Source: Octopus vulgaris
Lineage: Eukaryota
Assembly (NCBI GenBank): GCA_951406725.2
Contig: OX597819.1
Location: 40,300,001 to 40,364,000, forward strand
Length of the DNA stretch: 64,000 nt
Direction: 5' to 3'
The position numbers and the translations under genes are program-made. Shown here piece by piece: positions 2,913 to 56,305 of the stretch. How positions within the stretch are numbered: the stretch's first letter is position 1; each line of letters opens with the position of its first letter. The notes beneath the pieces are model-generated. The model saw only the letters and a program-made list of their open reading frames with translations. It did not search any database and was not told where the DNA came from.

Positions 2913-4206
2913 TGATGGTTTTGTCCATGTCCTTCATTTTAATATTGCATCTGTTCATCTTAGAAGAACTCTTGCTGGATTCTACCATATAGAATTAAAC
3001 AGCAGTCACCCTTAGAACATGCACAATTAGTGCTAGGCAATCAATGAGTTTAATAATTTAGCTGTGAAAGGCAGTGAGCTAACAGAATCGTTACCCAACC
3101 AAACAAAATACTTAGCTGCATTTCTTCTATTGTTACATTCTGAGTTCAAATGCCACCAAGACTGGCTTTGCCTTTCGTCCCTTTGGGGTCAATAAAATAA
3201 ATGCCAGTTGATCACCAGGGTCGATGTAATTGACTTACCCCCTCCTCAAAATTGTGGGTCTTATGCCAAAATATTGTAGCCAGTAATTTTACTGCCAGAA
3301 TCTTGTGCCAAGGAGTATTTTTAATATTAGTATTAGTATTAGCCAGACTAACACACCTGGTGATTCTTTCAAAGATTTTGGGAAGAATTTCTTTTATTTT
3401 TCCTTTTTGTTTTAGTCTGGCTGTGACCATACTGGGGCACCCACCTTGAAGTATAGTCAAACAAGTCACACACTCACACTCCCTGCTCCCCAGTACTTAT
3501 CTTTTTTTAAGCGTGGTACTTATTCTATCAGGCTCATTTTGCTGAATTGCTAAGTTACAAGAACATAAACAAACCAATACCAGCTGTCAAGTAGTGGTGG
3601 AGGGAACAAATGCAGAGACACACAAGTACATATATGCACACACACACACACAACAGGTTTTCTCTGAGTTTCTGTCTACCAAATTCATTTCTCAAAGTAT
3701 TCATCAGCCTTGGGCTGTAGTAGAAGACACTTTCTAAGTTGGCTATTTCACTGTGATAAAGCAGTGTCAGCATCATCATCATCATCATTCTGTCTTCCAT
3801 GCTGGCATGGGTTGGGCAGTTCAACATGAACTGACGAATCAGTGACTTGTGCCCAGTTCCAGTGTCTATTTCAGCACGGCTTTTACAGCTAGAGGCTCTT
3901 CCTAACATCAACCACTTCACAGAGTGTACTGGATGCTTTACTCATGGCACCAGCACTGGTGAGGTCACCAAGTTCTCACAAGGCAAGATCCTTGAGTGAG
4001 ATACAGTATTGAGGGATATAAAAAGTATAATGGAAGGACAACAGTAGGTGTTCCGATGAAGAGGTGAATACGTAGTGTCCCTATTTGGAAAGAGAGAGAT
4101 GAGATCATGGTACAATGTGAATGTAAAAGAGAACAGAGGTACAGAAAAGTGTTTTTATTAAGATTAACTGATTTTGAGATATTTATTAACTGAAGATAAT
4201 TTTGTA

Positions 4207-8879: not shown

Positions 8880-10790
8880 TAGACTAGTGATTTGTAACAT
8901 CAGAGTAAGGGCTAAATGGACTCAAACAGCAAAACAATCCAGAAAAGGAAGGCTTGGAAAATTGAAAGATGTGACTATACAGAAAGCTATGCAATCCCAA
9001 CAGCAAAAAGGAGGAGATAAAGACTTAAGCATGAAGTTAAGTGAGAATCTCTACAAGTCAATCTGGCTGAGAGCTACAGACCAGTTCTATGGGTACAACA
9101 AGGTGGAAAGTGAAACTGGTGGGATAATACAGTAGATAGAGAATTAAAGACTCAGAGACAGGCCCAGAAAGAACAGAAGAAAGGCAGAGGACAAAGTACA
9201 CAACCAGGAAGCTAATTGAGAAGCTGAGAGTTGGTGAGATCAGAGCTATGAGGTACTTATAATTGTATTAGGCTGAATCAGAATATCATTGGTGAAAATG
9301 TGCAAGGAATGATAAGTGACACACTCAGTTTCCCTGAAGAAAGAGACATGGAAATGTTACAAGAGCTTGTAGAAGCAGGGAGAGAGAGGAACTGCTTCAA
9401 ATAGACTCATCAGAGGGACTATCTATTGACGTTAACAGCTTTATGTATGTAAGGTCCATTACAAATATGAAGGCAGAGGAAGTGGCCAGACTATCAGAGA
9501 TAATTACTAAAGTGCAGAAAATATCCTGCTATGTAGGATATGTGCTAATTACTTGCATAGTTAATTAGGTTGTTCAGGGAGTTATCATTCTCAGTACTTG
9601 GTGTAGCAGTATTATCAACAACCACTACAAAGGCAAATGAGATGCTCTAGAAAGAAGCAACTATTAAGGTATCAAAATGATGGACCAAGTTAGGAAAGAA
9701 GCAAAGGGAGGCATAGTTTAGCTGATTTGTAAGAAAATTAACTTAGATGAGAAGCAGTTCGGATTTGTGTCAGGGCAGTACACAATCAGTGCCCTCTTCT
9801 CAGGAGAAATTCTTAATCAAAAAACAAATCACTGAACCTTACATTCGCTGAGCTGAAGAAGACTTTTGACAGGGGTCCATGACCTGTAGTCTAGTGGTCA
9901 TTGAGAAGTTAGCAATGAGTTCAATAAAGAACTGAGTGTACATATAGGTTCTCAACCTGTTTCTATTCTCCAAGCCATACAGATGAGTTTAAGAATGGTG
10001 ATTCATAGGAACTTCTGCTTGTTGCTGACCAAGTTCTCATAGTTGATTCAGTCAAAGAATGGACAGAAAAGTTCTGAAGAAAGAAGCAAAATTGAAAATC
10101 AAGAAGTCTGAAAGTAAAACAAGCAAAGGCCACTGAACTTGGTTTTGGTAAGTGGCTATGACTCATACAGAAAAGATGTAGGGATGAAATGTATATTGTG
10201 TACCCAATGTACACCAAGGGTGCACAAGAGATGTAATGATATCACAGGCAGACCAACTGGAAAAGAAGGACATTATAAGAAAAAAAATGTTCAGGATTAG
10301 TTAGCAAAAAGAGCACCTTTGAAATGCTTTCCTAAATATGGACAGTTTTTGCTATGTAAGTGACCCAGTCAGCAGTGAAGACTAATGTTTTCAAAAGCAT
10401 AGTAGAGAAGTCATTATGAGATGGAAAAGTTAAAGAGTTTATTATTCCTGGTAGCAAGAAGGATTCTCTCTCCAAGTAAAGGATGGATTGAGTGATGCTT
10501 AAGAACAACTCATAGCATTGCATGTGATGACTTGAAAGAAATGAGGCTAGCAAGCTCCACTAGTGTAATGTTAGTGTGCATGAATGATGGAGCTGAGAGA
10601 AAGAGAAACCTGTAATGAGAAAGAGGGAAGACAGTGCAAATAAAGTGAGTGATGGTTGTATTGGGCATGAGAGAAACTGGTATTGTTACAGACATCTGAG
10701 GCATATGGAGAATTACAATTGGGTAAAGAAGTGCCAAGTGATCTAAGCAGAAGAGAAAGAGGTGGTGAATGCTGAAACACATGAAGGAGA
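8880..10790 (+). pseudogene. Heavily decayed RTE-clade ORF2 (reverse transcriptase)
   Basis: Remnant motifs GIKMMDQV, LDEKQFGFVSG (QFGF), FAELKKTFDR (DLEKAFD) in collinear order, many stops. Confidence 0.75.
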
Positions 10791-19537: not shown

Positions 19538-20029
19538 AACAATTATTATTGTTGTTACCATTGTTAAGTTGTCAGAATCTTTTGCACATCAGATGACAAG
19601 CTTAGTAGCATTTCTTCCAGTTTCTTACATTCTGAGTTCAAATGAGCTTCTTAACCACATAGCCATGCATCCATTGGCATCGTGCTATACCCAAGAAGTG
19701 TTAAGGCTGGTCCCTAGTGAAGAGGATTGGCTTACAAGAGTCCTGTGCCAGTGTCACTTAAAGAGCACTTGTGCCAGTGCTACATAAATGCACTCATGTG
19801 ATACCATGTAAAAGGACCCAACATACTCTGTAGAGTGGTTGGCATCAGGAAAGAATTCTAGCCATAGAAACCATGCCAAATCAGATTGTATCCTGGTGCA
19901 GCTCTGGTCAAACCATCCAACCCATGCCAATGGACAATGAATGTTAAATGATGATGATGATAATGATAGAATTATCATTATTTCTAATTCTCTGTAAAGG
20001 AGACTATGGCAGCAGTACTGGATAATAGC

Positions 20030-33504: not shown

Positions 33505-34020
33505 ATCACCATCATCATCGTTTAACGTCTGCTTTTCATGCTAGCATGGGTTAGATGATTTGGCTGAGGTCTGGTGAACCAGTTGGCTGCACCAGACTCC
33601 AATCTGATCTGGCAGAGTTTCTACAGCTGGATGCCCTTCCTAATGCTAACCACTCCAAGAGTGTAGTGGGTGCTTTTACTTGCCACCGGCACAAGGGCCA
33701 GTCTGGCAGTACTGGCAACAGCCATGCTCGAATGGTGTCTTTTACATAGCACCTGCACAGGAGTCAGTCCAGCGGCACTGGCAATGACCTCGCTCGAATG
33801 TTTTATTCACATGTCACTGGCACAAGTGCCAGTAAGGCGACGCTGGTAATGATCATGCTCAAATAGTGCTTTTTACATACCACTGGCACGGATGCCAGAC
33901 AGCTGCTCTGGCAGTGATCCCGCTCAGATGGAGCTGTAAGTGCTCCACTGGCACAAGTGCCAGTCATCAAATTTGGTTCAATTTCGATTTCACTTGCCCC
34001 AACAGGTTTTCACAAGCAGA
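33505..34020 (-). mobile_element. RTE 3' UTR/tail with about 5 diverged minisatellite units
   Basis: catcatcgtttaacgtc tail, ggatgcccttcctaa block, about 60-bp units. Confidence 0.8.
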
Positions 34021-39687: not shown

Positions 39688-40297
39688 CACATCATCATCA
39701 TCATCATCGTTTAACGTCCGCTTTCCATGATAGCATGGGTTGGGCGATTTTGACTGAGGGCTGGCGAGCCAGATGGCTGCACCAGGCTCCAATCTTGATC
39801 TGGCAGAGTTTCTACAGCTGGATGCCCTTCCTAACGCCAACCACTCCGAGAGTGTAGTGGGTGCTTTTTATGTGCCACAGGCACAGGGGCCAGTCAGGTG
39901 GTACTGGCAATGACCTTGCTCGAATCTTTTTATGCGTGCCACCAGCACAGGTGCCAGTGAAGCGATGTTGGTAATGATCACGCTCGAATGGTGCCCTTTT
40001 ACGTGCCACGGGTACGGAAGCCCGTTGGCTGCTCTGGCAACGATCATGCTCGGATGGTGGGGTACGGAAGCCAGTTGGCTGCTCTAGCAACGATCACGCT
40101 CGGATGGTGTTCTTGGCATCCTACTAGCACAGGCATGAGTGCCTGTAAGGCGACGCTGGTAACGATCATACTTGAATAGCCGCTCTGTCAATAATCACAC
40201 TCGTATGGTGCTCTTTGCACCCTGCTAGCACAGATGCCAGTCATCGAATTGATTTTGATTTCGATTTCACTTGCCTCAACAGGTCTTCGCAAGCAGA
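39688..40297 (-). mobile_element. RTE 3' UTR/tail with several minisatellite units
   Basis: (CAT)n tail; cacgctcgaatggtg repeats. Confidence 0.85.
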
Positions 40298-41099
40298 ACC
40301 ATATATTTTATTTCTGATTTTGTTTCAATAGCTGGATGTCCTTCTTATCACCAACCACTTGTACAAGGTGTTCTTTATTATGGCACCAGCACTAAAATGG
40401 TTATCATGTCCTCCTCCTTCTCCTCTTCCTCCTTACAATCATCATCATTAATTAATGTCTGTTTTCAATGTTGGTGTGGGTTGGACAATTCAACAGGAGC
40501 TGGCAAACCAGAGGACTGCATCAGGGTCTGATATCTGCTTTGACATGGTTTTTTAAAACTGGATGCCCTTCCTAGCACTAACTATTTTACAGAGTGCATA
40601 GGGTGCTTTTTTATGTTGCACTGGCAATAGTAAGGACATCAAGTCACTCACAATACATGACCCCCTCAAATAAGTTTAGGAGGGAGTAGTATTGATGGAG
40701 ATGGCTTTATGCTAGGTGATATGAAATTAAAGTATGATTGGAGACAGGAACAGATGTTTTGCTGTAGGGAAAATATGTGGTAATCTCAGTTAGAAGAGAA
40801 AGAGGATGGCAGTGAAGATGTATCAAGGAGTACCTTCAAGTTACAAGACTAAAATGTCCTCTCAAGCCCATATTGTCTTCATTTATTCATTGGGTCTGTT
40901 TTTTTGGGGTCTGTTTCTAACAGTAGAGACGGTGACATGTTTTCACCAAGACTAAAAAGTCTTCTTCACCCCATGTTGTTTCTTCTTGTTCACCAGCCAT
41001 GTTTCAGAGTGTACTAGGTGCATCTTATCATGGCATCAGTGAGGTTACCTGGTAAGAATGAAGACTTCTCATTACTCAAAATAATGTAATATCATCATC

Positions 41100-41480: not shown

Positions 41481-42102
41481 AACAGTACTTAACATCTGCT
41501 TTCCATGCTGGCATTGGTGGGATGGCTTGACCGGAGTTGGAAAGGCCAAGGTCCACACCAGGCTCCATTGTCTGTTCTGGCATGGTTTCTATGGTTGGAA
41601 GCCCTTCCTAATGCCACCCACTCCACAGAGTATACAGAGTGACTTTTAGCATGACACCAACACAAGTGCTTTTTATGTGGCACCAGCAACACTGCTTTTT
41701 ATGTGGCACCAGCACTGCTATCAATTCTGCTGTAGTGGACAGGTCTTCTTGAGTACAAGGCACCAGATATCTTGGTCTTTTGCCATTTCCTTTGTAAGGC
41801 TTAGTGTCTTGAGATTGGCCTTCAAGTTGTGGTGCACCTGAGCACTGTATACAATAATTTCATTATTATTATTATATAAATTTCACAAAATATAATATAT
41901 ATATAAAAATTAGGAAAAACCACCTTTTATCAATTCAAAATGAACAATTAAATTACACCATCTAGAAAATTACATATAATAGAAATACTAAAAATAAAAT
42001 AACAATACTATACCAATGATTAAGTGAATTGCAAAATAATAATAATGTATATATTTGGTATATATTTGGTAGAATAACATATATTTGGTATATAATTGAT
42101 AG

Positions 42103-42784: not shown

Positions 42785-44947
42785 CATGCATGTGCGTGTG
42801 TGTATGTATCATATGTGTGTGCATGTGTTCACATGTGTTGTGTGTGTGTGTGCTGCAGTTTTTCTCCCAAGTATTAGTTAGTGTAGAAATCTTCCGTGTC
42901 TTCTATGAAGCCACTAAGTTAAATATTGCAGACTTGAAGTCGTAATTCTAGCTGTTATTGAGTGTTCTTTGGCTTCATGTGTCTTCCTTATGATTTGTGG
43001 TACAAATTCAATCTAATTGCTAGAGCATAAGGCAAAATGCTTCAATATTTTTTCTAGATATATGCATTCTGAGTTCAAATCCTGCCAAAGTCAACTTTAT
43101 TTTCCATTCTTTCAGGGTTACTAAAAACCTCCATAGTGGTGCTGATTTGGTGAAATTGTCAGAGTGCTGGACAAGATGTCTAACAGTAAATGTACAATAG
43201 TGACTCTCCAGATACTAACGATCCAGAACCTCTTATAATCAGCACTAATTTACAAGCAAGAACTTCAAATTCTCATGACTGCCAGACTAGTTTACTGGGC
43301 AGCCCAGTTTCACAATACCTTTCACAGTACAGTATTAATAACATTGTATCATTTATATTTATGTACAGGTTCCTGTATTTCAAGTAATTATTCAAGTCTT
43401 TAACCTTTTAGTCTTTTACATGTTTCAGTCATTTTGATTGCAGCCATGCTGGAGCACTGCATTAAAGGGTTTTAGTCAAAGAAATTGATTTTATGACTTA
43501 TTCTTTGTAAACGTAGTATTTATTCTATCGGTCTCTCTTGCTAAACCACTAAATTACCGGGACATAAACACACCAACATCAAGTGATGGTGGGGGGGACA
43601 AACACAGACACAAAGACACATACACATAAATATATATATACATATATATGTATATGCTCTTAGCACCCTACTAGCATGGGGCACAAGTGCCAGTAAGGCG
43701 AAGCTGGCAACAGTCACACTCGAATGGTGCCTTTTATGTGCCACTGGTACGGAAGTTGGTTAGCTGCTCTGTCAACGTTCACACTCGTATGGTTTTCAGA
43801 TTAGGGTCAAGCTTGGATTTAGTGGACTGGCCAAAATACTATGATTACTGTGTCATGGCCACACAAATATCTGAAGGATGATAATTTTAAGATTACAATC
43901 TATTACATTTGCCAATTATTATTCATTAGGTTCACTTTGACTCACGCATATTTACTAATGCTAATGAGACTAAATATGTAATGTAGGTTATAGAGAACAT
44001 TTGTGAAGATGCTTGTGAGTGTATCTTTTAATGTGTGTGTGCGTGTGTGTGTGTGCATACATTACTGATTGTGCTTGTGTGCATGTGTGAGCATGTTTAT
44101 AAGTGAGTATGTGTTTGTATGTTTACTAGTGATTGTGCTTGTGTGTATGTGTCAGAAAGTGTATGAGTGAGTGAGTTTACTCAGTACATGGTACAGAATA
44201 TGGCACAATTTTGTACAGCATTCCCAGATTTCTAGAAGTGGATAAGAGGGCTGTACTCTTTGAGTCTTGAAAGCAATCAAGAATAAAAGTCATATTTGGT
44301 GGCACTTTCTTCTTTCTCAGCTATTTCTTCTTGTGGTAGAAACTGAATTCCAAGATTAGTTCGTGATAAAAGAAATTTCCTGAAGTAACGATCCCAGGTA
44401 AGACATTAAACTATATCCAGTGGGAAACCTTCAGCTTAAGAGTTTGGAAGTTTTGGGAAGCAAGGAATTGCTCTCAGGTCTACTCTGGTCCAGAATGGCA
44501 GTACATGGTTAAAGAGCCTAGTTTTGGGTCAAATAGCAGATGGTCATGTGGCTAAGACATAAAGCACTTGTAAGTGGGATGGGCTCTAGATATGTGTCAC
44601 AAGTCCACCATTGTGGGGACATGTCCTAATGCTATGTGAAAAATTCCAATGTCTAGGTTAAAAAGACCTTGTGTCTTAAGGGAACTTGGGAGAGCAGGAG
44701 ACTAGCAGAGTAAACTGTAAATAAACATGCAGAAGGAAACAGGAAACCACTACTGTATAGAGGCGTATATCCCAGGAGTGCTGCATGTGCAGTGACACCC
44801 ATTGAAAATGGCATTTTCATTATAAATATTAACCTTACTCAATTAATTTAATCACAAATCTTAATGGAAAACTTTTGCTATACCCCTGCTTGAAATTTGG
44901 TGACATTGGGTGTAGCAGCACACCCAAAATAACAACAACCATATACC

Positions 44948-45366
44948 TATTTCTTTACTACCCGCAAGGGGCTAAACACAGGGAGGAGAAACAAGGACAG
45001 ACACATGGATTAAGTCAATCATATCGACCCCAGTGCGTAACTGGTACTTATTTAATCGACCCTGAAAGGATGAAAGGCAAAGTCGACCTCGGCAGAATTT
45101 GAACTCAGAACGTAGCGGCAGACGAAATACCTATTTCTTTACTACCCACAAGGGGCTAAACACAGAGAGGACAAACAAGGACAGACACACGGATTAAGTC
45201 AATTATATTGACCCCAGTGCGTAACTGGTACTTATTTAATTGACCCTGAATGGATGAAAGGCAAAGTCGACCTCGTCAGAATTTGAACTCAGAACGTAAC
45301 AGCAGACGAAATACCGCTAAGCATTTTGCCTGTTGTGCTAATGATTATGCCAGCACGCTGCCTTTT
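44948..45366 (-). mobile_element. Tandem dimer of SINE family B within one 16-bp TSD
   Basis: TSD acaacaaccatatacc at 44932-44947 and 45367-45382; one full and one 5'-truncated unit. Confidence 0.92.
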
Positions 45367-46527: not shown

Positions 46528-47571
46528 TCATCATCATCATTGTTTAACGTCCGTTTTTCATGCTAGCATAGGTTGGACGGTCCAACTGGGGTCTGGGAAG
46601 CCAGGAGGCTGCACCAGGTTCCAGTCTGATCTGGCAGTGTTTCAACATCTAGGTGCCCTTCTTAACGCCAACCACTCCGTGTGAGTAGTGGGTGCTTTTT
46701 ATGTGCCAACAGCACAGGGGCCAGGGGAGGCTGGCAACGGCCATGATCGGTTGGTGCTTTTTATGTGCCACTGGCACAGAAGCCAATCAAGGTGGTGCTG
46801 GCATTGGCCACGTTTGGATGGTGCTTTTTACGTGCCACCGGCATGGGTATGACAACTACAATTTCCATTTGATTTATATTTTGATGTTGATGTACATGAC
46901 TCAATAGGTCTCAAGCACAGCAGGTCACCCTACAATCCAAGGTAAGCACAGCAAGTTGCCCTACGATCCAAGGTACTTTGAATGGGGTGGGGCTGGTTAT
47001 GTGAAACTGGTGTAGGTTACACCATGGACTCATTTTATTTGTCGGGTCTTTGCAGTCACAGCATATCTCCAGAGGTCTTGGTCTTTCGGCATTGCCTCTG
47101 TGAGGCCCAACGTTCGAAGGTCATGCTTGACCACCTCATCCCATGTCTTCCTGAGTCTACCTTTACCCTGGATTCCTTCAACTGTTTGGAAGTAGCACTT
47201 TATCACACATCTCTCCTCATCCATCCATAGTTCCATAGTACATGACCATACTAGCACAAACGTCTCTTTGGCACGCCACATCCGATGCTTCTTATGTCCA
47301 GCATTTCTCTCAGGGCGCTTACACTCTGTCATGTATGTACACTGACATTACACATCCAGCAGATCTTGCTAGCTTCATTTCTGTTGAGCCTACACATGTC
47401 CTCTGCAGTTACGACCCATGTTTCACTGCTGTGTAGCATGGCAGTTTGTACACATGCATCGTACAATCTACCTTTCACTTTGAGCAAGAGAGCCTTTGTC
47501 ACCAGTAGGTTTAGAAGCTTTCTAAACTTTGCCCAGGCTATTCTTATTCTAGTGGTAACACTCTGAGCATC
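46528..47571 (-). mobile_element. 5'-truncated RTE LINE
   Basis: RIRIAWAKFR..VKGRLYDACV..SETW..GRLRKTWDEVVKHDL, 3' UTR with about 3 units, (ATG)n tail. Confidence 0.92.
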
Positions 47572-47823: not shown

Positions 47824-49289
47824 ATAAACCAGCCTCCCCCATTATAATATTAACTGCTCTTGGAGTGTGCTTTTTCTCTGGATTTATGTTTTACGACAAA
47901 CAATTCTATGTATATATATATACGTATATATATAATCATCACCATCATCATCATTTAATGTCCATTTTCCATGTTGGCATGGGTTGGATGGTTTGACTGA
48001 AAACTGGTAAGCTGGGAAGCTGCACCAGGTTCCAATCTGATTTAGCATGGTTTCCTACAGCTGGATGCCCTTCCTAATGCCAACCATTCCAAGAGTGTAG
48101 TGGGTGCTTTTTACGTGCCACTGGCATGGGTGCCATATACCATCTTTTGTTTCTTGAGAGTTTTGCTCCACCATCTCATCAACCATCTTATTTTTCCCCA
48201 GATACTCCCAACCAACCTTATATTACTGTAGGGTAGCCAAGAATACATAAAATCACCTCTTCTCCCTCTCAAATATTCTGTGCATCCTACTTAGCCAAGT
48301 ATGCTTTCTTTTTTCTCTTTTATCCTTATTCTTGCTCTGTCTTGTTCTGCAGGTTACTTTATAACCCTACTGGTGCTAGTGGCATAAAGAAAACTAACAT
48401 CCAGTACATACTGTAGAGTGGTTGGTGTTAGGAATGGCATCCAGCAATAGAAACCATGTCAACGTTGACATGGGACATGATGCAGTTCTGTGGCTCACCA
48501 AATTCAGTCAAACTGTCCAACCCATGCCAGCATGGAAAACAGACATTAAATGGTGATGATGATGATGACAACAACGATGATAATAGTGATACTGATGATG
48601 GTGATGCTGCTGCTGATGATGATGATGATGAAACCATATAATGTAGACAATGATAATTTGTAGTGTATAATTTTTTTTTTTTTCATGAAAGCTAAATAAT
48701 AGTCTTAAACAGTAATTTTATGGAAGATAAATGCTAATATGCAAATTGAGTATAAATATTTTTCAACAAAATTACCGCTATATACAAAAGAAACAGTTTA
48801 AAAAAGCTTTTAGGTTAGAGATAGTAGTGATATATTGAAGCAACCATCATCATCATCAAATCAATTTCACTACTTTATATATATATATATTTGTATATGT
48901 GATACCTTCTGAAGTCCTACAGATATTATGCATTATATATATATATAGGGAGAGAGAGAGAGAACTGATAATGTGTGTGTGTGTGTATTGTGACAGAAAC
49001 AGTATCAGTACCAAAAAGCAATCTTTATATCCAACTTAACATGGATGTTTTGTCAGAACACTTAATAGTGCATCATTTAATCTAGAGACGACCTCTCATA
49101 TGGACTTGTGGTGCATAAAAGCAATCATATTTATATAACTGACAAGTGAGAATTGTCTCCTACAGCTGCTGGAACTGCCAGATTACATGATTTCACCCTG
49201 TTTTGGGTCCCTCAGTGGCAGATGTCTACAAGCAATATAACAGCCAAATCTCCCTGGCATCAGTATATAGCACTTCAGTGTCTTTTCAG

Positions 49290-51618: not shown

Positions 51619-51675
51619 GGATATGTGTGTGTGTGTATGCTTGTATGTATATAAGTATATATGAATATAATTATG

Positions 51676-53286
51676 TCATCATCATCATCATCATCATCAT
51701 TTAGCGTCCGTTCTCCATGCTAGCATGGGTTGGACGGTTCAACTGGGGTCTGTGAAGCTGGAAGGCTTCATCAGGCCCAGTCAGATCTGGCAGTCTTTCT
51801 ACGGCTGGATGCCCTTCCTAACGCCAACCACTCCGTGAGTGTAGTGGGTGCTTTTTACGTGCCACCTGCACAGGTGCCAGACAGAGCTGGCAAACGGCCA
51901 CGAATGGATGGTGCTTTTACGTGTCACCGGCACGGGGCCAGGCGAGGCTGGCAACGGACACGAACGGATGGTGCTTTTACGTGCCACCAACACGGGGGCC
52001 ACACAGAGCTGGCAAACGGCCACGAAACGGATGGTGCTTTTACGTGTCACCGGCACGGGGGCCAGGTGAGGCTGGCAACGGGCACGAACGGATGGTGCTT
52101 TTACATGCCACCGACACGGGGGCCAGACAGGGCTGGCAAACGGCCACGAAAGGATGGTGCTTTTACGTGTCACCGGCACGGGGGCCAGGCGAGGCTGGCA
52201 ACGGACACGAACGGATGGTGCTTTTACATGTCACCGACATGGGGGCCAGACAGGGCTGGCAAACGGCCACGAACAGATGGTGCTTTTACGTGTCACCGGC
52301 ACGGGGGCCAGACAGAGCTGGCAAACGGCCACGAACGGATGATGCTTTTACGTGTCACCGGCACGGGGGCCAGACAGAGCTGACAAACGGCCACGAACGG
52401 ATGGTGCTTTTACGTGTCACCGGCACGGGGGCCAGACAGAGCTGGCAAACGGCCACAAACAGATGGTACTTTTACGTGTCACCGGCACGGGGGCCAGGCC
52501 AGGCTGGCAACGAACACGAACGGATGGTGCTTTACGTGCCACCTACACGGGGGCCAGACAGGGCTGGCGAACGGCTACGAACGGATGGTACTTTTACGTG
52601 TCACCTGCACGGGGGCCCTGATGTTGATCGACCTCAATTTGGTTTGATCTTGATTTTGACTGTTCTCACTGGTCTTGCCGGGTTTTCTCACGCACAGCAT
52701 ACCTCCAAAGGTCTCGGTCACTGGTCATTTCCTTGGTGAGACCTAAAGTTCGAAGGTCGTGCTTCACCGCCTCGACCCAGGTTTTCCTGGGTCTACCTCT
52801 TCCACAGGTCCCCTCAACTGCCAGGGTGTGGCACTTTCACACACAACTATCTTCAGCCATTCTCATCACATGACCATACCAGCGCATACGTCTCTCTTGC
52901 ACACAACAACTGATACTTCTTAGGTTCAACTTTTCTCTCAAGGTACTTACACTCTGTCGATTATGAACACTGACGTTACACATCCATCGGAGCATACTAG
53001 CTTCATTTCTTGCGAGCTTACGCAAATCCTCAGCAGTCACAGCCCAAGTTTCACTACCATGTAGCATGGCTGTACGTACACATGCATCATACAGTCTGCC
53101 TTTTACTTTGAGCGAGAGGCCTTTTGTCACCAGCAGAGGTAAGAGCTCTCTAAACTTTGCCCAGGCTATTCTTACTCTAGCAGTTATACTCTCAGCGCAC
53201 CTGCCCCCGCTACTGACTTGGTCACCTAGGTAACGGAAACTATCAACTACTTCTAGCTTTTCTCCCTGGAAAGTGACGGAAGTTGG
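51676..53286 (-). mobile_element. 5'-truncated RTE LINE with expanded 3' UTR minisatellite
   Basis: FQGEKLEVVDSFRYLG..HGSETW..RWYGHVMRM; (ATG)n tail. Confidence 0.93.
51847..52618. repeat. Minisatellite: 12 full units of 60-63 bp plus a partial unit
   Basis: Anchor ggtgcttttacgtg recurs near 51847, 51910, 51970, 52033, 52094, 52156, 52217, 52279, 52341, 52403, 52465, 52526, 52587. Confidence 0.97.
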
Positions 53287-53333
53287 TATAATGTTTTTTA
53301 TAAAATTATTTTAGCATTTTCTATCTTGACTTT

Positions 53334-53374
<41 letters not shown>

Positions 53375-53556
53375 ATTTTCAAATTTGCCTGCACACCACC
53401 AATGTTACGACAGTTGATGTATCAATTTTCAGTTTTATCCACAGATGATATTAACAGTAGTGGTATCTTATTTCAAATCTTTGTGTTTGAATGCTTTGTT
53501 TATATATATATGTATGAATGTATGTATATGTGTGTGTGTGTATATATATATATGTA

Positions 53557-53606
<50 letters not shown>

Positions 53607-53676
53607 TACATATATATATATATACATACACACACACATATACATACATACATACATACATACATACATACATACA

Positions 53677-53725
<49 letters not shown>

Positions 53726-53727
<2 letters not shown>

Positions 53728-54956
53728 CATCATCATCATCATCATCGTCGTTTAACGTCCGCTTTCCATGCTAGCATGGGTTGGACGGTTCAACTGGGGT
53801 CTGGGGAGCCCGAAGGCTGCACCAGGCCAGTCAGATCTGGCAGTGTTTCTACAGCTGGATGCCCTTCCTAACGCCAACCACTCCGAGAGTGTAGTGGGTG
53901 ATTTTATGTGCCACCGACACAGGTGCCAGACGAGGCTGGCGAACGGCCATGCTCGGATGGTGTTTTTATGTGCCACCGACACAGGTGCCAGACGAGGCTG
54001 GCAGACGGCCACGCTCGGATGGTGTTTTTATGTGCCACCGACACAGGTGCCAGACGAGGCTGGCAGACGGCCACGCTCGGACGGTGTTTGCGGGTGCCAG
54101 ACTGGCTACGGTCCCGTCCCGTCAGATGGTTTTCTTATGTGCCACCGGCACTGGTACCACAAGGATACAAATTCCATTGATGTTCATCTATTTTGATTTG
54201 GTTTGACTTGATTCGATTTGACTTTGATTTGATTTGCCTCAACAGGTCTTCACAAGTGTCACAAGCAGGAAGGTATGCACAGGCGGACTGACTACGTCCC
54301 AGGTAGGGGCCACGGGTTATGGCTTCACTAGTCTTGCCGGGTCTTCTCACGCACAGCATACTTCCATAGGTCTCGGTCTCTGGTCATTTCCATAGTGAGA
54401 CCTAACGTTCGAAAGTCGTGCTTCACCACCTCGTCCCAGGTTTTCCTGGGTCTACCTCTTGCACGGGTTCCCTCAACTGCTAGGGATTGGCACTTTCTCA
54501 CACACCTATCTTCATCCATTCTCGCCACATGACCATACCATCGCAATCATCTCTCTTGCACGCAACAACTGATGCTTCTTAGGTACAACATTTCTCTTAG
54601 GGAACTAACACCCTGTCGAGTAAGTACACTGACATTATACATCCATCGGAGCATACTGGCTTCATTCCTCATGAGCTTACGCATGTCCTCAGCAGTCACG
54701 GCCCATGTTTCACTGCCATGTAAGCATGGCAGTTCGAATACATTCATCATACAGTCTGCCCTTTACTCTGAGCGAGAGGCCTTTAGTCACCAGCAGAGGT
54801 AAGAGCTCCCTAAACTTTGCCCAGGCTATTCTTATTCTAGCAGTTACACTCTCAGCGCACCCACCCCCACTACTGACTTGGTCACCTAGATAACGGAAGC
54901 TATCAACTACTTCTAATTTTTCCCCCTGGAAAGTGACGGAAGTTGTTTTCTGCAGA
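53726..54956 (-). mobile_element. 5'-truncated RTE LINE
   Basis: KTTSVTFQGEKLEVVDSFRYLGDQVSSGGGC..RGRPRKTWDEVVKHD; about 4 UTR units. Confidence 0.93.
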
Positions 54957-54971
54957 TATATATATATACAT

Positions 54972-56208
54972 ATGTGGCAGATGCTCAGGAGCAATAAGCA
55001 CTGAAATTGCGCAGAGAGCAACTTCTGCCACATTCCAGGGAGAAAAACTAGAAATAGTTGATAGCTTCCATTACCTAGGTGACCAAGTCAGTAGCGGGGG
55101 CGGGTGTGTTGAAAGTGTAACTGCTAGAGTAAGAATAGCTTGGGCAAAGTTCAGAGAGCTCTTACCTCTGCTAGGGACAAAAGGCCTCTCGCTCAGAGTA
55201 AAAGGCAGACTGTATGATGCATGTGTATGAACAGCCATGCTACATGGCAGTGAAACATGGGCCGTGACTGCTGAGGATATGCGTAAGCTCGCAAGAAATG
55301 AAGCCAGTATGCTCCGATGGATGTGTAATGTCAGTGTTCATACTCGACAAAGTGTAAGTACCTTGAGAGAGAAGTTGGACCTAAGAAGCATCAGTTGCGG
55401 TGTGCAAGAGAGATGTTTGCGCTGGTATGGCCATATGGCGAGAATGGATGAAGATAGTTGTGTGAAAAAGTGCCACATCCTAGCTGTTGAGGGAACCTGT
55501 GGAAGAGGCAGACCCAGGAAAACCTGGGATGAGGTGGTGAAGCACGACCTTTGAACTTTAGGTCTCACTAGAGACCAAGACCTTTGAAAGTATGCTGTGT
55601 GTGAGAAGACCCGGCAGGACAAGTGAGACCATAACCCATGGCCTCAGTCCACTTATGCATACCTTTCCTTCTTGGGACACAAAACTCTACTTGTGAAGAA
55701 CTGTTGAAGCAAGTGAAAATCAAAATCAAAATCAAAAATCAAAATCGATCAACATGATTGGAAATTGTAGCTGTGATACCAGTGCCGGTGGAACATAAGA
55801 GAACCATCCGAATGTGGCCATTGCCAGCGCTGCCCTGACTGGCTTCCGTGCCGGTGGCACGTAAAAAGCACCATCCAATCGTGGCCGTTGCCAGCCTCGC
55901 CTGACCCCCGTGCCAGTGACACGTAAAAAGCACCATCCGATCGTGGCCGTTTGCCAGCCTTGCCTGGCCTCCGTGCCGGTGGCATGTAAAAAGCACCATC
56001 CAATTGTGGCCGTTTGCCAGCCTCGTCTGGCACCTGTGCCGGTGGCACGTAAAAAGCACCCACTACACTCATGGAGTGGTTGGCGGTAGGAAACATTGCC
56101 AGATCAGACTGGGCCTGGTGCAGCCTTCTGGCTTCCCAGACCCCAGTTGCACCGTCCAACCCATGCCAGCATGGAAAACGAATGCCAAACGATGATGATG
56201 ATGATGAT
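54972..56208 (+). mobile_element. 5'-truncated RTE LINE, head-to-head with the previous copy
   Basis: CGRCSGAI..FQGEKLEIVDSFHYLG..GRGRPRKTW; about 5 UTR units; (GAT)n tail. Confidence 0.93.
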
Positions 56209-56305
56209 ATATATGTATATATATATATATGTATATGTATGTGTGCATGTAGGTATTTATATATATGTACATACACACACACACACATATGTATATATGT
56301 ATTTA

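Follow-up and report, generated by a model that had tools for sequence, protein, structure and literature searches.

A tandemly expanded, probably folded 62-nt unit beside a 5'-UTR-type motif in the 3' UTR of an RTE-type LINE of Octopus vulgaris

Introduction

Within the window, the 64,000-nt stretch of Octopus vulgaris DNA analysed here, a truncated LINE copy carries a long tandem array between the end of its ORF and its 3' end. The locus raises the question of whether the repeated unit is an RNA element that serves the transposon, or a repeat that grew there and was tolerated. The answer favoured here, with moderate confidence, combines the two: the array is a tandem 62-nt expansion in the 3' UTR of an RTE-type LINE, the fold of the unit was likely selected in the source elements, and its growth to twelve copies was likely tolerated slippage.

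Results

Architecture of the array and its host element

The array extends from 51847 to 52617 with a period of 62, 12.5 copies and 85% matches (TRF). Split on the minus strand, it resolves into 12 full units of 60-63 nt and a lone core at 52587-52617, so that the twelve-unit array placed here by the first-pass annotation is confirmed by both procedures and gains a thirteenth core. On the minus strand, each unit proceeds from a linker through a GCCAG/CTGGC hairpin to a core of the form CGTG-NN-GGTG-N-CACG-TAAAAG-CACC. The seven tail-nearest units (51847-52278) alternate between two types, A and B, with a mean distance of 11.0 at lag 1 and 4.8 at lag 2. This alternation, already described for units 1-7, is upheld by permutation (p=0.004 for the seven units over all 5040 orders; p=0.007 for all 12). 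The monomer run said to follow unit 7 is found in part: three near-identical A units (52279-52464) are present, but a B unit and then an A unit lie beyond them on the ORF side. In sense order, the focal copy passes from the array through a terminal region of 146 nt into (GAT)n, and comprises the following features:

52666..53283, minus strand: 3' remnant of the ORF, the LINE region after the RT and a PHD-like finger; 5'-truncated, frame broken near 52840
52666-52668, minus strand: stop codon of the ORF remnant
52618..52665, minus strand: post-stop spacer; its counterparts in sister copies at 54.2 and 55.7 kb are longer
52587..52617, minus strand: lone first core, predicted to form an H-type pseudoknot only
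51910..52586, minus strand: 11 internal units, reading A B A A A A B A B A B in the sense direction
51847..51909, minus strand: last unit, of the type ending sister arrays; separated by 6 differences from its counterpart at 56.0 kb and by 12-13 from the internal types
51789..51829, minus strand: 5'-UTR-type motif GGTTGG...GGAAGGGCATCC...TGCC, predicted stem and pseudoknot
51770..51810, minus strand: ATCC...TGCCAG-N6-CTGG... stretch, colinear with the first 40 nt of the unit, whose linker and hairpin may stem from it
51701..51739, minus strand: 3' terminal stem-loop common to related elements, likely the RT recognition signal
51676..51700, minus strand: (GAT)n tail

The focal spacer appears to have undergone internal deletions, which would include the first core and the 67-nt unit type.

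The host of the array is a 5'-truncated RTE-type LINE, and the array sits in its 3' UTR, as had been proposed; homologs, ORF remnants and terminal features all support this context. The ORF remnant has 69 homologs, mostly RT proteins, of which the full-length ones contain an endonuclease, an RT and often a PHD finger, and the nearest named ones are Octopus proteins, 86-89% identical. Close relatives possess a single ORF with AP endonuclease and RT, of which the window copy retains the C-terminal remnant only; Pfam returns one match to this remnant, with an E of 0.77. Membership in the RTE clade is likely, on the basis of architecture and of the accessible portion of PMC9115989 rather than of an RT tree. 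In that portion, RTE-2_OV is said to have an ORF of 1109 aa, with UTRs each of some 600 nt (PMC9115989). The focal family is possibly that of RTE-2_OV, by comparison with this description rather than with the RTE-2_OV sequence, and the two RTE-2_OV primers tested have no match in the 64-kb window. According to the accessible part of another study, RTE families of O. vulgaris are abundant and partly active (PMC13282606).

A metagenome scan yields 79 related loci, 15 of which are listed in detail. In nine of these 15, a 3' stem-loop lies at or within about 60 nt of the stop and is followed by a microsatellite, while L007, L011 and L012 have other 3' ends and three more are broken or cut off. The focal 3' UTR thus measures ~970 nt versus 0-60 nt in those nine. 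Over 12 sequences, 88% of the stem-loop cells are paired, and covariation is modest (2/7 pairs; 10-25 of 500 shuffles). Because relatives end in this same stem-loop and a microsatellite without the array, the array is unlikely to be the RT recognition signal; the recognition role once suggested for the units finds no support, given the nine listed relatives with the stem-loop near the stop and the lack of a match to the unit among the fetched loci. Viral contigs contain neither a related ORF nor the 5'-UTR-type motif, and Rfam returns nothing informative on six related loci.

A 5'-UTR-type motif beside the array

The 41-nt motif at 51789-51829 matches the 5' UTR of the relatives L001, L006, L008 and L013. 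That the motif adjoining the array is a 5'-UTR motif in related elements is a point absent from the first-pass annotation. The four loci are half of the eight with a long ORF and 5' sequence, and are the four closest, with a C-terminal protein 45-50% identical to the focal one; in all four, the distance from the motif to the next ATG is 21-33 nt. These RTE-clade LINEs share with the focal family the 3' stem-loop, the microsatellite tail and the GGAAGGGCATCC-type motif. They differ from it in a near-absent 3' UTR and in the position of the motif, which precedes the ORF in the relatives and lies behind the ORF, with the array, in the focal family.

A pattern scan of genome contigs locates the motif in eight stretches, all in metagenome-assembled bins: one is a 5' UTR (G001:C269) and the others are short elements. 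The contig G001:C269 holds the motif twice, each copy before an ORF start; its locus L096 consists of a near-complete related LINE and, ~200 nt on, the 5' end of a second LINE. The short motif-bearing elements L087:1338-1600 and L081-L086 lie in contigs of prokaryotic bins, and one of the two tested (L087) has a tRNA-like head with the motif behind it. The metagenome-bin contigs bearing the motif are likely animal DNA.

A hand-drawn stem and pseudoknot of the motif shows both-side changes in 5/12 pairs across 14 sequences, against 0/500 shuffles, only about three of these changes being independent events in intact elements. The pseudoknot helix, 82% paired, has no both-side changes, and RNAalifold on the terminal motif does not prefer the hand-drawn register and returns another. 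Upstream of the motif, compact H-type pseudoknots of 9-12 bp are drawable at L013:292-320, at L008:151-180 and in the second 5' UTR of L096. The motif is not found in the supplement of Kojima 2018 (PMC5786205), and four motif strings retrieve no papers from the full-text literature.

The occurrence of the motif in the 5' UTRs of relatives and in the body of a tRNA-headed SINE suggests that the tail is a cassette of a 5'-UTR piece and a 3' end set behind the ORF, the 5' role in the family being judged from the 5' UTRs of its relatives. The motif is likely useful to the element, and the extra unit copies are likely a by-product of copying slips.

Folding and constraint of the unit

Two interleaved stems, short loops 1 and 2 and an A-rich loop 3, the marks of an H-type pseudoknot, are present in silico in 13/13 cores, and all 13 pass an H-type pseudoknot scanner, one of them in a shifted register. 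The earlier proposal that the unit can form such a pseudoknot therefore stands, though among 1000 dinucleotide shuffles of one unit 20% also contain some pseudoknot and 1% a pseudoknot with a 5-bp hairpin. The GCCAG/CTGGC hairpin with a variable loop, proposed along with it, is likewise found: each pair is formed in 29-31 of 31-32 units, and the loop ranges from 6 to 11 nt. In five single units, the folding energy is no better than that of shuffles (z -0.96 to +0.30). Stem 1 also faces competition from a nested fold. RNAalifold on the units does not recover the predicted fold and returns a different, weak structure of -3.0 kcal/mol.

Across an alignment of 32 units from 8 loci, covariation is weak (4/13 pairs, 10 cells; 27/500 and 17/500 shuffles are as high). 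The warning that apparent covariation could be CpG decay proves justified, with eight of the ten both-side cells CpG on both sides and one CpG on one side; the remaining cell lies in a pair that is broken in 11/32 units. Covariation with CpG sites excluded, suggested as a check on the fold, is thereby reduced in the window units to this one fully non-CpG cell of ten.

Such results fit an ordinary neutral minisatellite in a LINE 3' UTR, whose pairings would be fortuitous and whose conserved columns would be explained by common descent together with CpG-driven variation elsewhere. The frequency of pseudoknots in shuffles, the lack of excess folding energy, the almost entirely CpG-borne covariation, the structure missed by RNAalifold and the absence of the array from relatives all agree with it, and tandem repeats derived from TE 3' UTRs are known (PMC9659126, in the part available). 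The distribution of variants argues against it. Non-CpG variants shared by at least two loci avoid the predicted stems and private ones do not, with shared/private counts of 6/21 in stems and 21/18 elsewhere (p=0.012), or of 2/21 and 23/15 with the 4-bp stem 1 drawn in the first-pass annotation (p=5e-5), and, for this stem 1 with the focal array left out, of 3/17 and 21/11 (p=5e-4; column permutation 0.0014), where the shared variants are not independent of one another and the stems were picked by eye on the same sequences. Stems mutating as freely as loops had been named as the outcome that would speak against the fold; the shared variants show the opposite (p=0.012 to 5e-5). Private changes are mostly post-insertion decay and shared variants mostly source-element history, and the avoidance of stems by shared non-CpG variants therefore indicates that the unit was constrained in the source elements. 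Loop 3 has no shared variant either. Since it is as constrained as the stems, and since the stems were themselves defined from the sequences tested, the constraint may be one on primary sequence and not on pairing.

The variable core positions coincide with the predicted loop 1 and the junction, and the core is the part that persists across periods of 26, 34, 62 and 67 bp, both of which also weigh against a neutral minisatellite. All four letters occur at the loop-1 base 51867 in public contigs (36/37/16/11% in X8, 37/39/11/13% in X14), and among the other positions listed, 51864 and 51857 vary by <=0.3%. The query for this comparison was one unit plus the terminal region, and the raw-read runs X23 and X24 gave 28 and 31 reads. 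Taken together, a neutral minisatellite is unlikely, if still a serious alternative, and the unit likely folds, as modelled, into a hairpin and a small pseudoknot.

Beyond the family, Rfam finds nothing on the array, and profile models of the unit find no match elsewhere, with a best E of 3.8 over 87 loci for the HMM and of 2.4 over 15 for the covariance model. In one of seven 5' UTRs tested, that of L013, a unit-like segment occupies the same position (mean score, p=0.002; best score, p=0.03). If the segment is homologous, GAGA/TCTC replaces GTGC/GCAC there, which gives two changed but complementary stem-1 pairs, and stem 2 would have 2 G-U in 4 pairs. The segment fails the pseudoknot scanner and is missed by the HMM and covariance-model searches. 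The 67-nt unit looks similar to the L001 and L096 5' UTRs, but this resemblance is not significant (p 0.06-0.78) and was dropped; L006 was too short and was left out of the comparison.

A self-cleaving ribozyme, or the remnant of one, would also be a compact fold in such a place: the unit lies upstream of a 5'-UTR motif, as ribozymes do in RTE 5' UTRs, and ribozymes are reported in RTE elements (PMC6765202 and PMC8501958, in their accessible parts). Rfam gives no ribozyme match at E<=5 in 51650-56250, and three copies contain no HDV-like, hammerhead or twister pattern in a scan run with no positive control. Cleavage would moreover part the ORF from its 3' priming signal, and a ribozyme is hardly probable at all. 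In the same interval, 51650-56250, Rfam gives no match to exoribonuclease-resistant RNA.

Sister copies and growth of the array

All seven sister loci named earlier (24.3, 33.7, 39.9, 46.7, 53.9, 55.8 and 60.5 kb) are present with 3-6 cores each, while their variants, previously held to be copy-specific, are largely position- and subfamily-specific. Further loci lie at 8.7, 43.7 and 48.1 kb, and older-type loci at 3.9, 19.8, 40.4, 40.6, 41.7 and 48.4 kb. Three sister copies and one older copy are laid out as follows:

55015..56210, plus strand: sister copy; ORF remnant, core, 67-nt unit, B-like unit, A/B-like unit and last unit, terminal region
53720..54979, minus strand: sister copy; ORF remnant, core, partial unit and three 62-nt units, terminal region
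46535..47568, minus strand: sister copy; ORF remnant, core, 67-nt unit and 62-nt unit, terminal region
41489..41830, minus strand: older subfamily; ORF end followed at once by three 25-27-bp repeats of the core alone, terminal region

ORF remnants precede the tail at 52.7, 54.3, 55.0, 47.0 and 41.8 kb. Core-only triplets of 25-27 bp stand before the terminal region at 41639-41717 and 19742-19818 in the older subfamily. The 24.3-kb array stops after its third core, and from 24455 onward unrelated sequence follows, the terminal region and 3' end being lost. Two copies of one subfamily (33980-34020 and 40250-40297) have almost identical starts, ~70 nt upstream of their first core. Diverged single-core tails without an ORF remnant lie at 3796-3961, 40323-40392, 40457-40627 and 48400-48544; the sequences upstream of them match neither one another nor the proteins. 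At 53720-56210, two 5'-truncated LINE copies stand back to back around (AT)n near 54955-54975, forming a long inverted repeat, from which a below-gathering Rfam match to MIR2646 arises; this match was rejected. Elsewhere in the window, 9386-10379 (+) is a decayed RT-coding remnant of another LINE, and 44943-45315 is a tandem dimer of a 184-bp repeat with 94% identity, which we take to be SINE-like.

The sister copies share unit types in a fixed order of core, 67-nt unit and 62-nt units. The 55.8-kb copy contains a B-like unit (55b; 8.2 differences from B, 14.1 from A), an intermediate unit (11.0 from A, 10.0 from B) and a last-type unit. Since ordered unit types are shared among sister copies and a B-like unit is already present at 55.8 kb, the small arrays are judged to be inherited from source elements. 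The A/B rhythm is likely an amplified neighbour pair, and variants common among the A units imply several rounds of duplication. Repeat periods vary (25-27 bp for core-only repeats, 34, 62 and 67 bp), and reads and contigs show periods of 34 and 56 bp. The first 40 nt of the unit are colinear with the terminal-region hairpin, with p=0.001 in 1/7 own-locus comparisons and p<=0.02 in 4/7 pooled ones; from this likeness, the linker and hairpin of the unit may possibly derive from the terminal region.

Over 600 columns, 28 changes are private to the focal ORF. In its in-frame part, 9 are silent and 10 replacing where 26% silent are expected (p=0.04), and from this excess of silent changes the focal copy is taken to descend from a source lineage of its own. 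The non-CpG change rate of the focal array equals that of the ORF (21/538 vs 25/503, p=0.45), and because the two do not differ, the expansion is not datable against the insertion. Distinct non-CpG changes in the focal array number 4 in 26 stem columns, three of which keep G-U, and 11 elsewhere, all small counts.

These observations bear on two further explanations of the repetition. In a dose-dependent array, tandem pseudoknots would enhance translation or stability from the 3' side or would block nucleases, and the number of units would itself be selected. The core was multiplied independently in the older subfamily, whose triplets stand at 19.8 and 41.7 kb, as well as in younger subfamilies, and pairing is kept in every one of the 13 cores. 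An analogous domain of TMV stimulates translation and is replaceable by poly(A) (PMC5382211, in the part available). Selection on dose is nevertheless distinctly improbable: the core number ranges from 1 to 13 among neighbouring copies, relatives spread although they have hardly any 3' UTR, truncated copies in the window have their 5' ends at scattered points instead of at the array edge, and the array changes at the same rate as the ORF.

The other explanation regards the units as an RT recognition element multiplied by RT slippage at insertion, and seeding satellites. RT template jumping is established for non-LTR elements. It would agree with this explanation, as would short repeats at a LINE 3' end and the internal deletions in the focal spacer. 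Conversely, the 3' stem-loop is conserved at the ORF end of relatives without any array, unit types are inherited in fixed order across loci, and the variants shared by A units imply several rounds of duplication. The seeding of satellites, part of the original proposal, is not seen in the 64-kb window, where no array is longer than the focal one or clearly independent of an element. Taken as a whole, this explanation is very improbable.

Discussion

The preferred reading, selection on the fold in source elements followed by tolerated growth, can be set out as a route of three steps. Behind the ORF stop, the order is core or cores, 5'-UTR-type motif, family 3' stem-loop and (GAT)n. In the first step, a piece of the 5' UTR would have been duplicated into the region behind the ORF of an ancestor, whose tail would thereby have come to resemble a bipartite non-autonomous RTE element. 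In the second, repeated duplication would have multiplied the core, leaving spacers of between 0 and about 40 nt; that of the 62- and 67-nt units may copy the terminal-region hairpin. In the third, source elements would have carried a few position-specific units, whose types are observed, and the focal lineage would then have amplified, over several rounds, an existing B-A pair as well as single A units. The most likely role of the core and its neighbouring motif would be that of a cis RNA element that aids the contact of the transcript with the ribosome or with an element protein, while priming would be the task of the 3' stem-loop. On a bolder reading, a 5'-UTR pseudoknot cassette moved behind the ORF, where one pseudoknot was multiplied as a working 3' translation or stability enhancer, and 5'-truncated copies would be ready-made bipartite SINEs; this reading, drawn by analogy, is quite unlikely, and if true would help to explain why the tail is common in the genome.

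Several known systems resemble parts of this anatomy. According to the available portion of Kojima 2018, some RTEs carry a conserved 5'-UTR domain twice, and bipartite RTE-derived elements and SINE bodies join a 5'-UTR-derived segment to a 3' end, as the focal tail does; those elements lack an ORF, whereas the focal bipartite piece follows an ORF in cis and is accompanied by a tandem array (PMC5786205). Ogre/PisTR-A, Gmr9 and HeT-A similarly have hypervariable tandem repeats in a retroelement 3' UTR, but these, as far as the accessible text of PMC9659126 describes them, were the origin of satellites or belong to other classes of element. For the focal array no satellite is seen in the window, and the unit bears signs of constraint. 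The upstream pseudoknot domain of Tobamovirus, with tandem small pseudoknots upstream of a structured 3' end, serves as a working analogy only: it is a viral RNA of fixed number whose function was tested (PMC5382211, in the part accessible), whereas the fold of the focal array is predicted from sequence and no homology is claimed. The tRNA-derived SINEs of the Meta, Deu and Ceph superfamilies have a tRNA-derived head, in place of which the focal tail has an ORF remnant upstream, and no tRNA-like gene is found in the 64-kb window. No description of this array was found in the full-text literature, a search whose coverage does not extend to Repbase, Dfam and subscription journals, and a prior annotation of the array in repeat databases is possible.

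In conclusion, the tail of this LINE is abundant and has an unusual anatomy, with a 5'-UTR-type motif behind its ORF and a multiplied, constrained and probably folded unit. Were the fold incidental, the array would be a common kind of 3'-UTR minisatellite and of minor interest. Why RTEs so often yield SINEs that keep a 5'-UTR piece is an open question (PMC5786205). An autonomous element with a 5'-UTR piece in its 3' UTR and a duplicated, apparently constrained fold offers a natural test case for it, with short RNAs, many natural variants and clear mutants.
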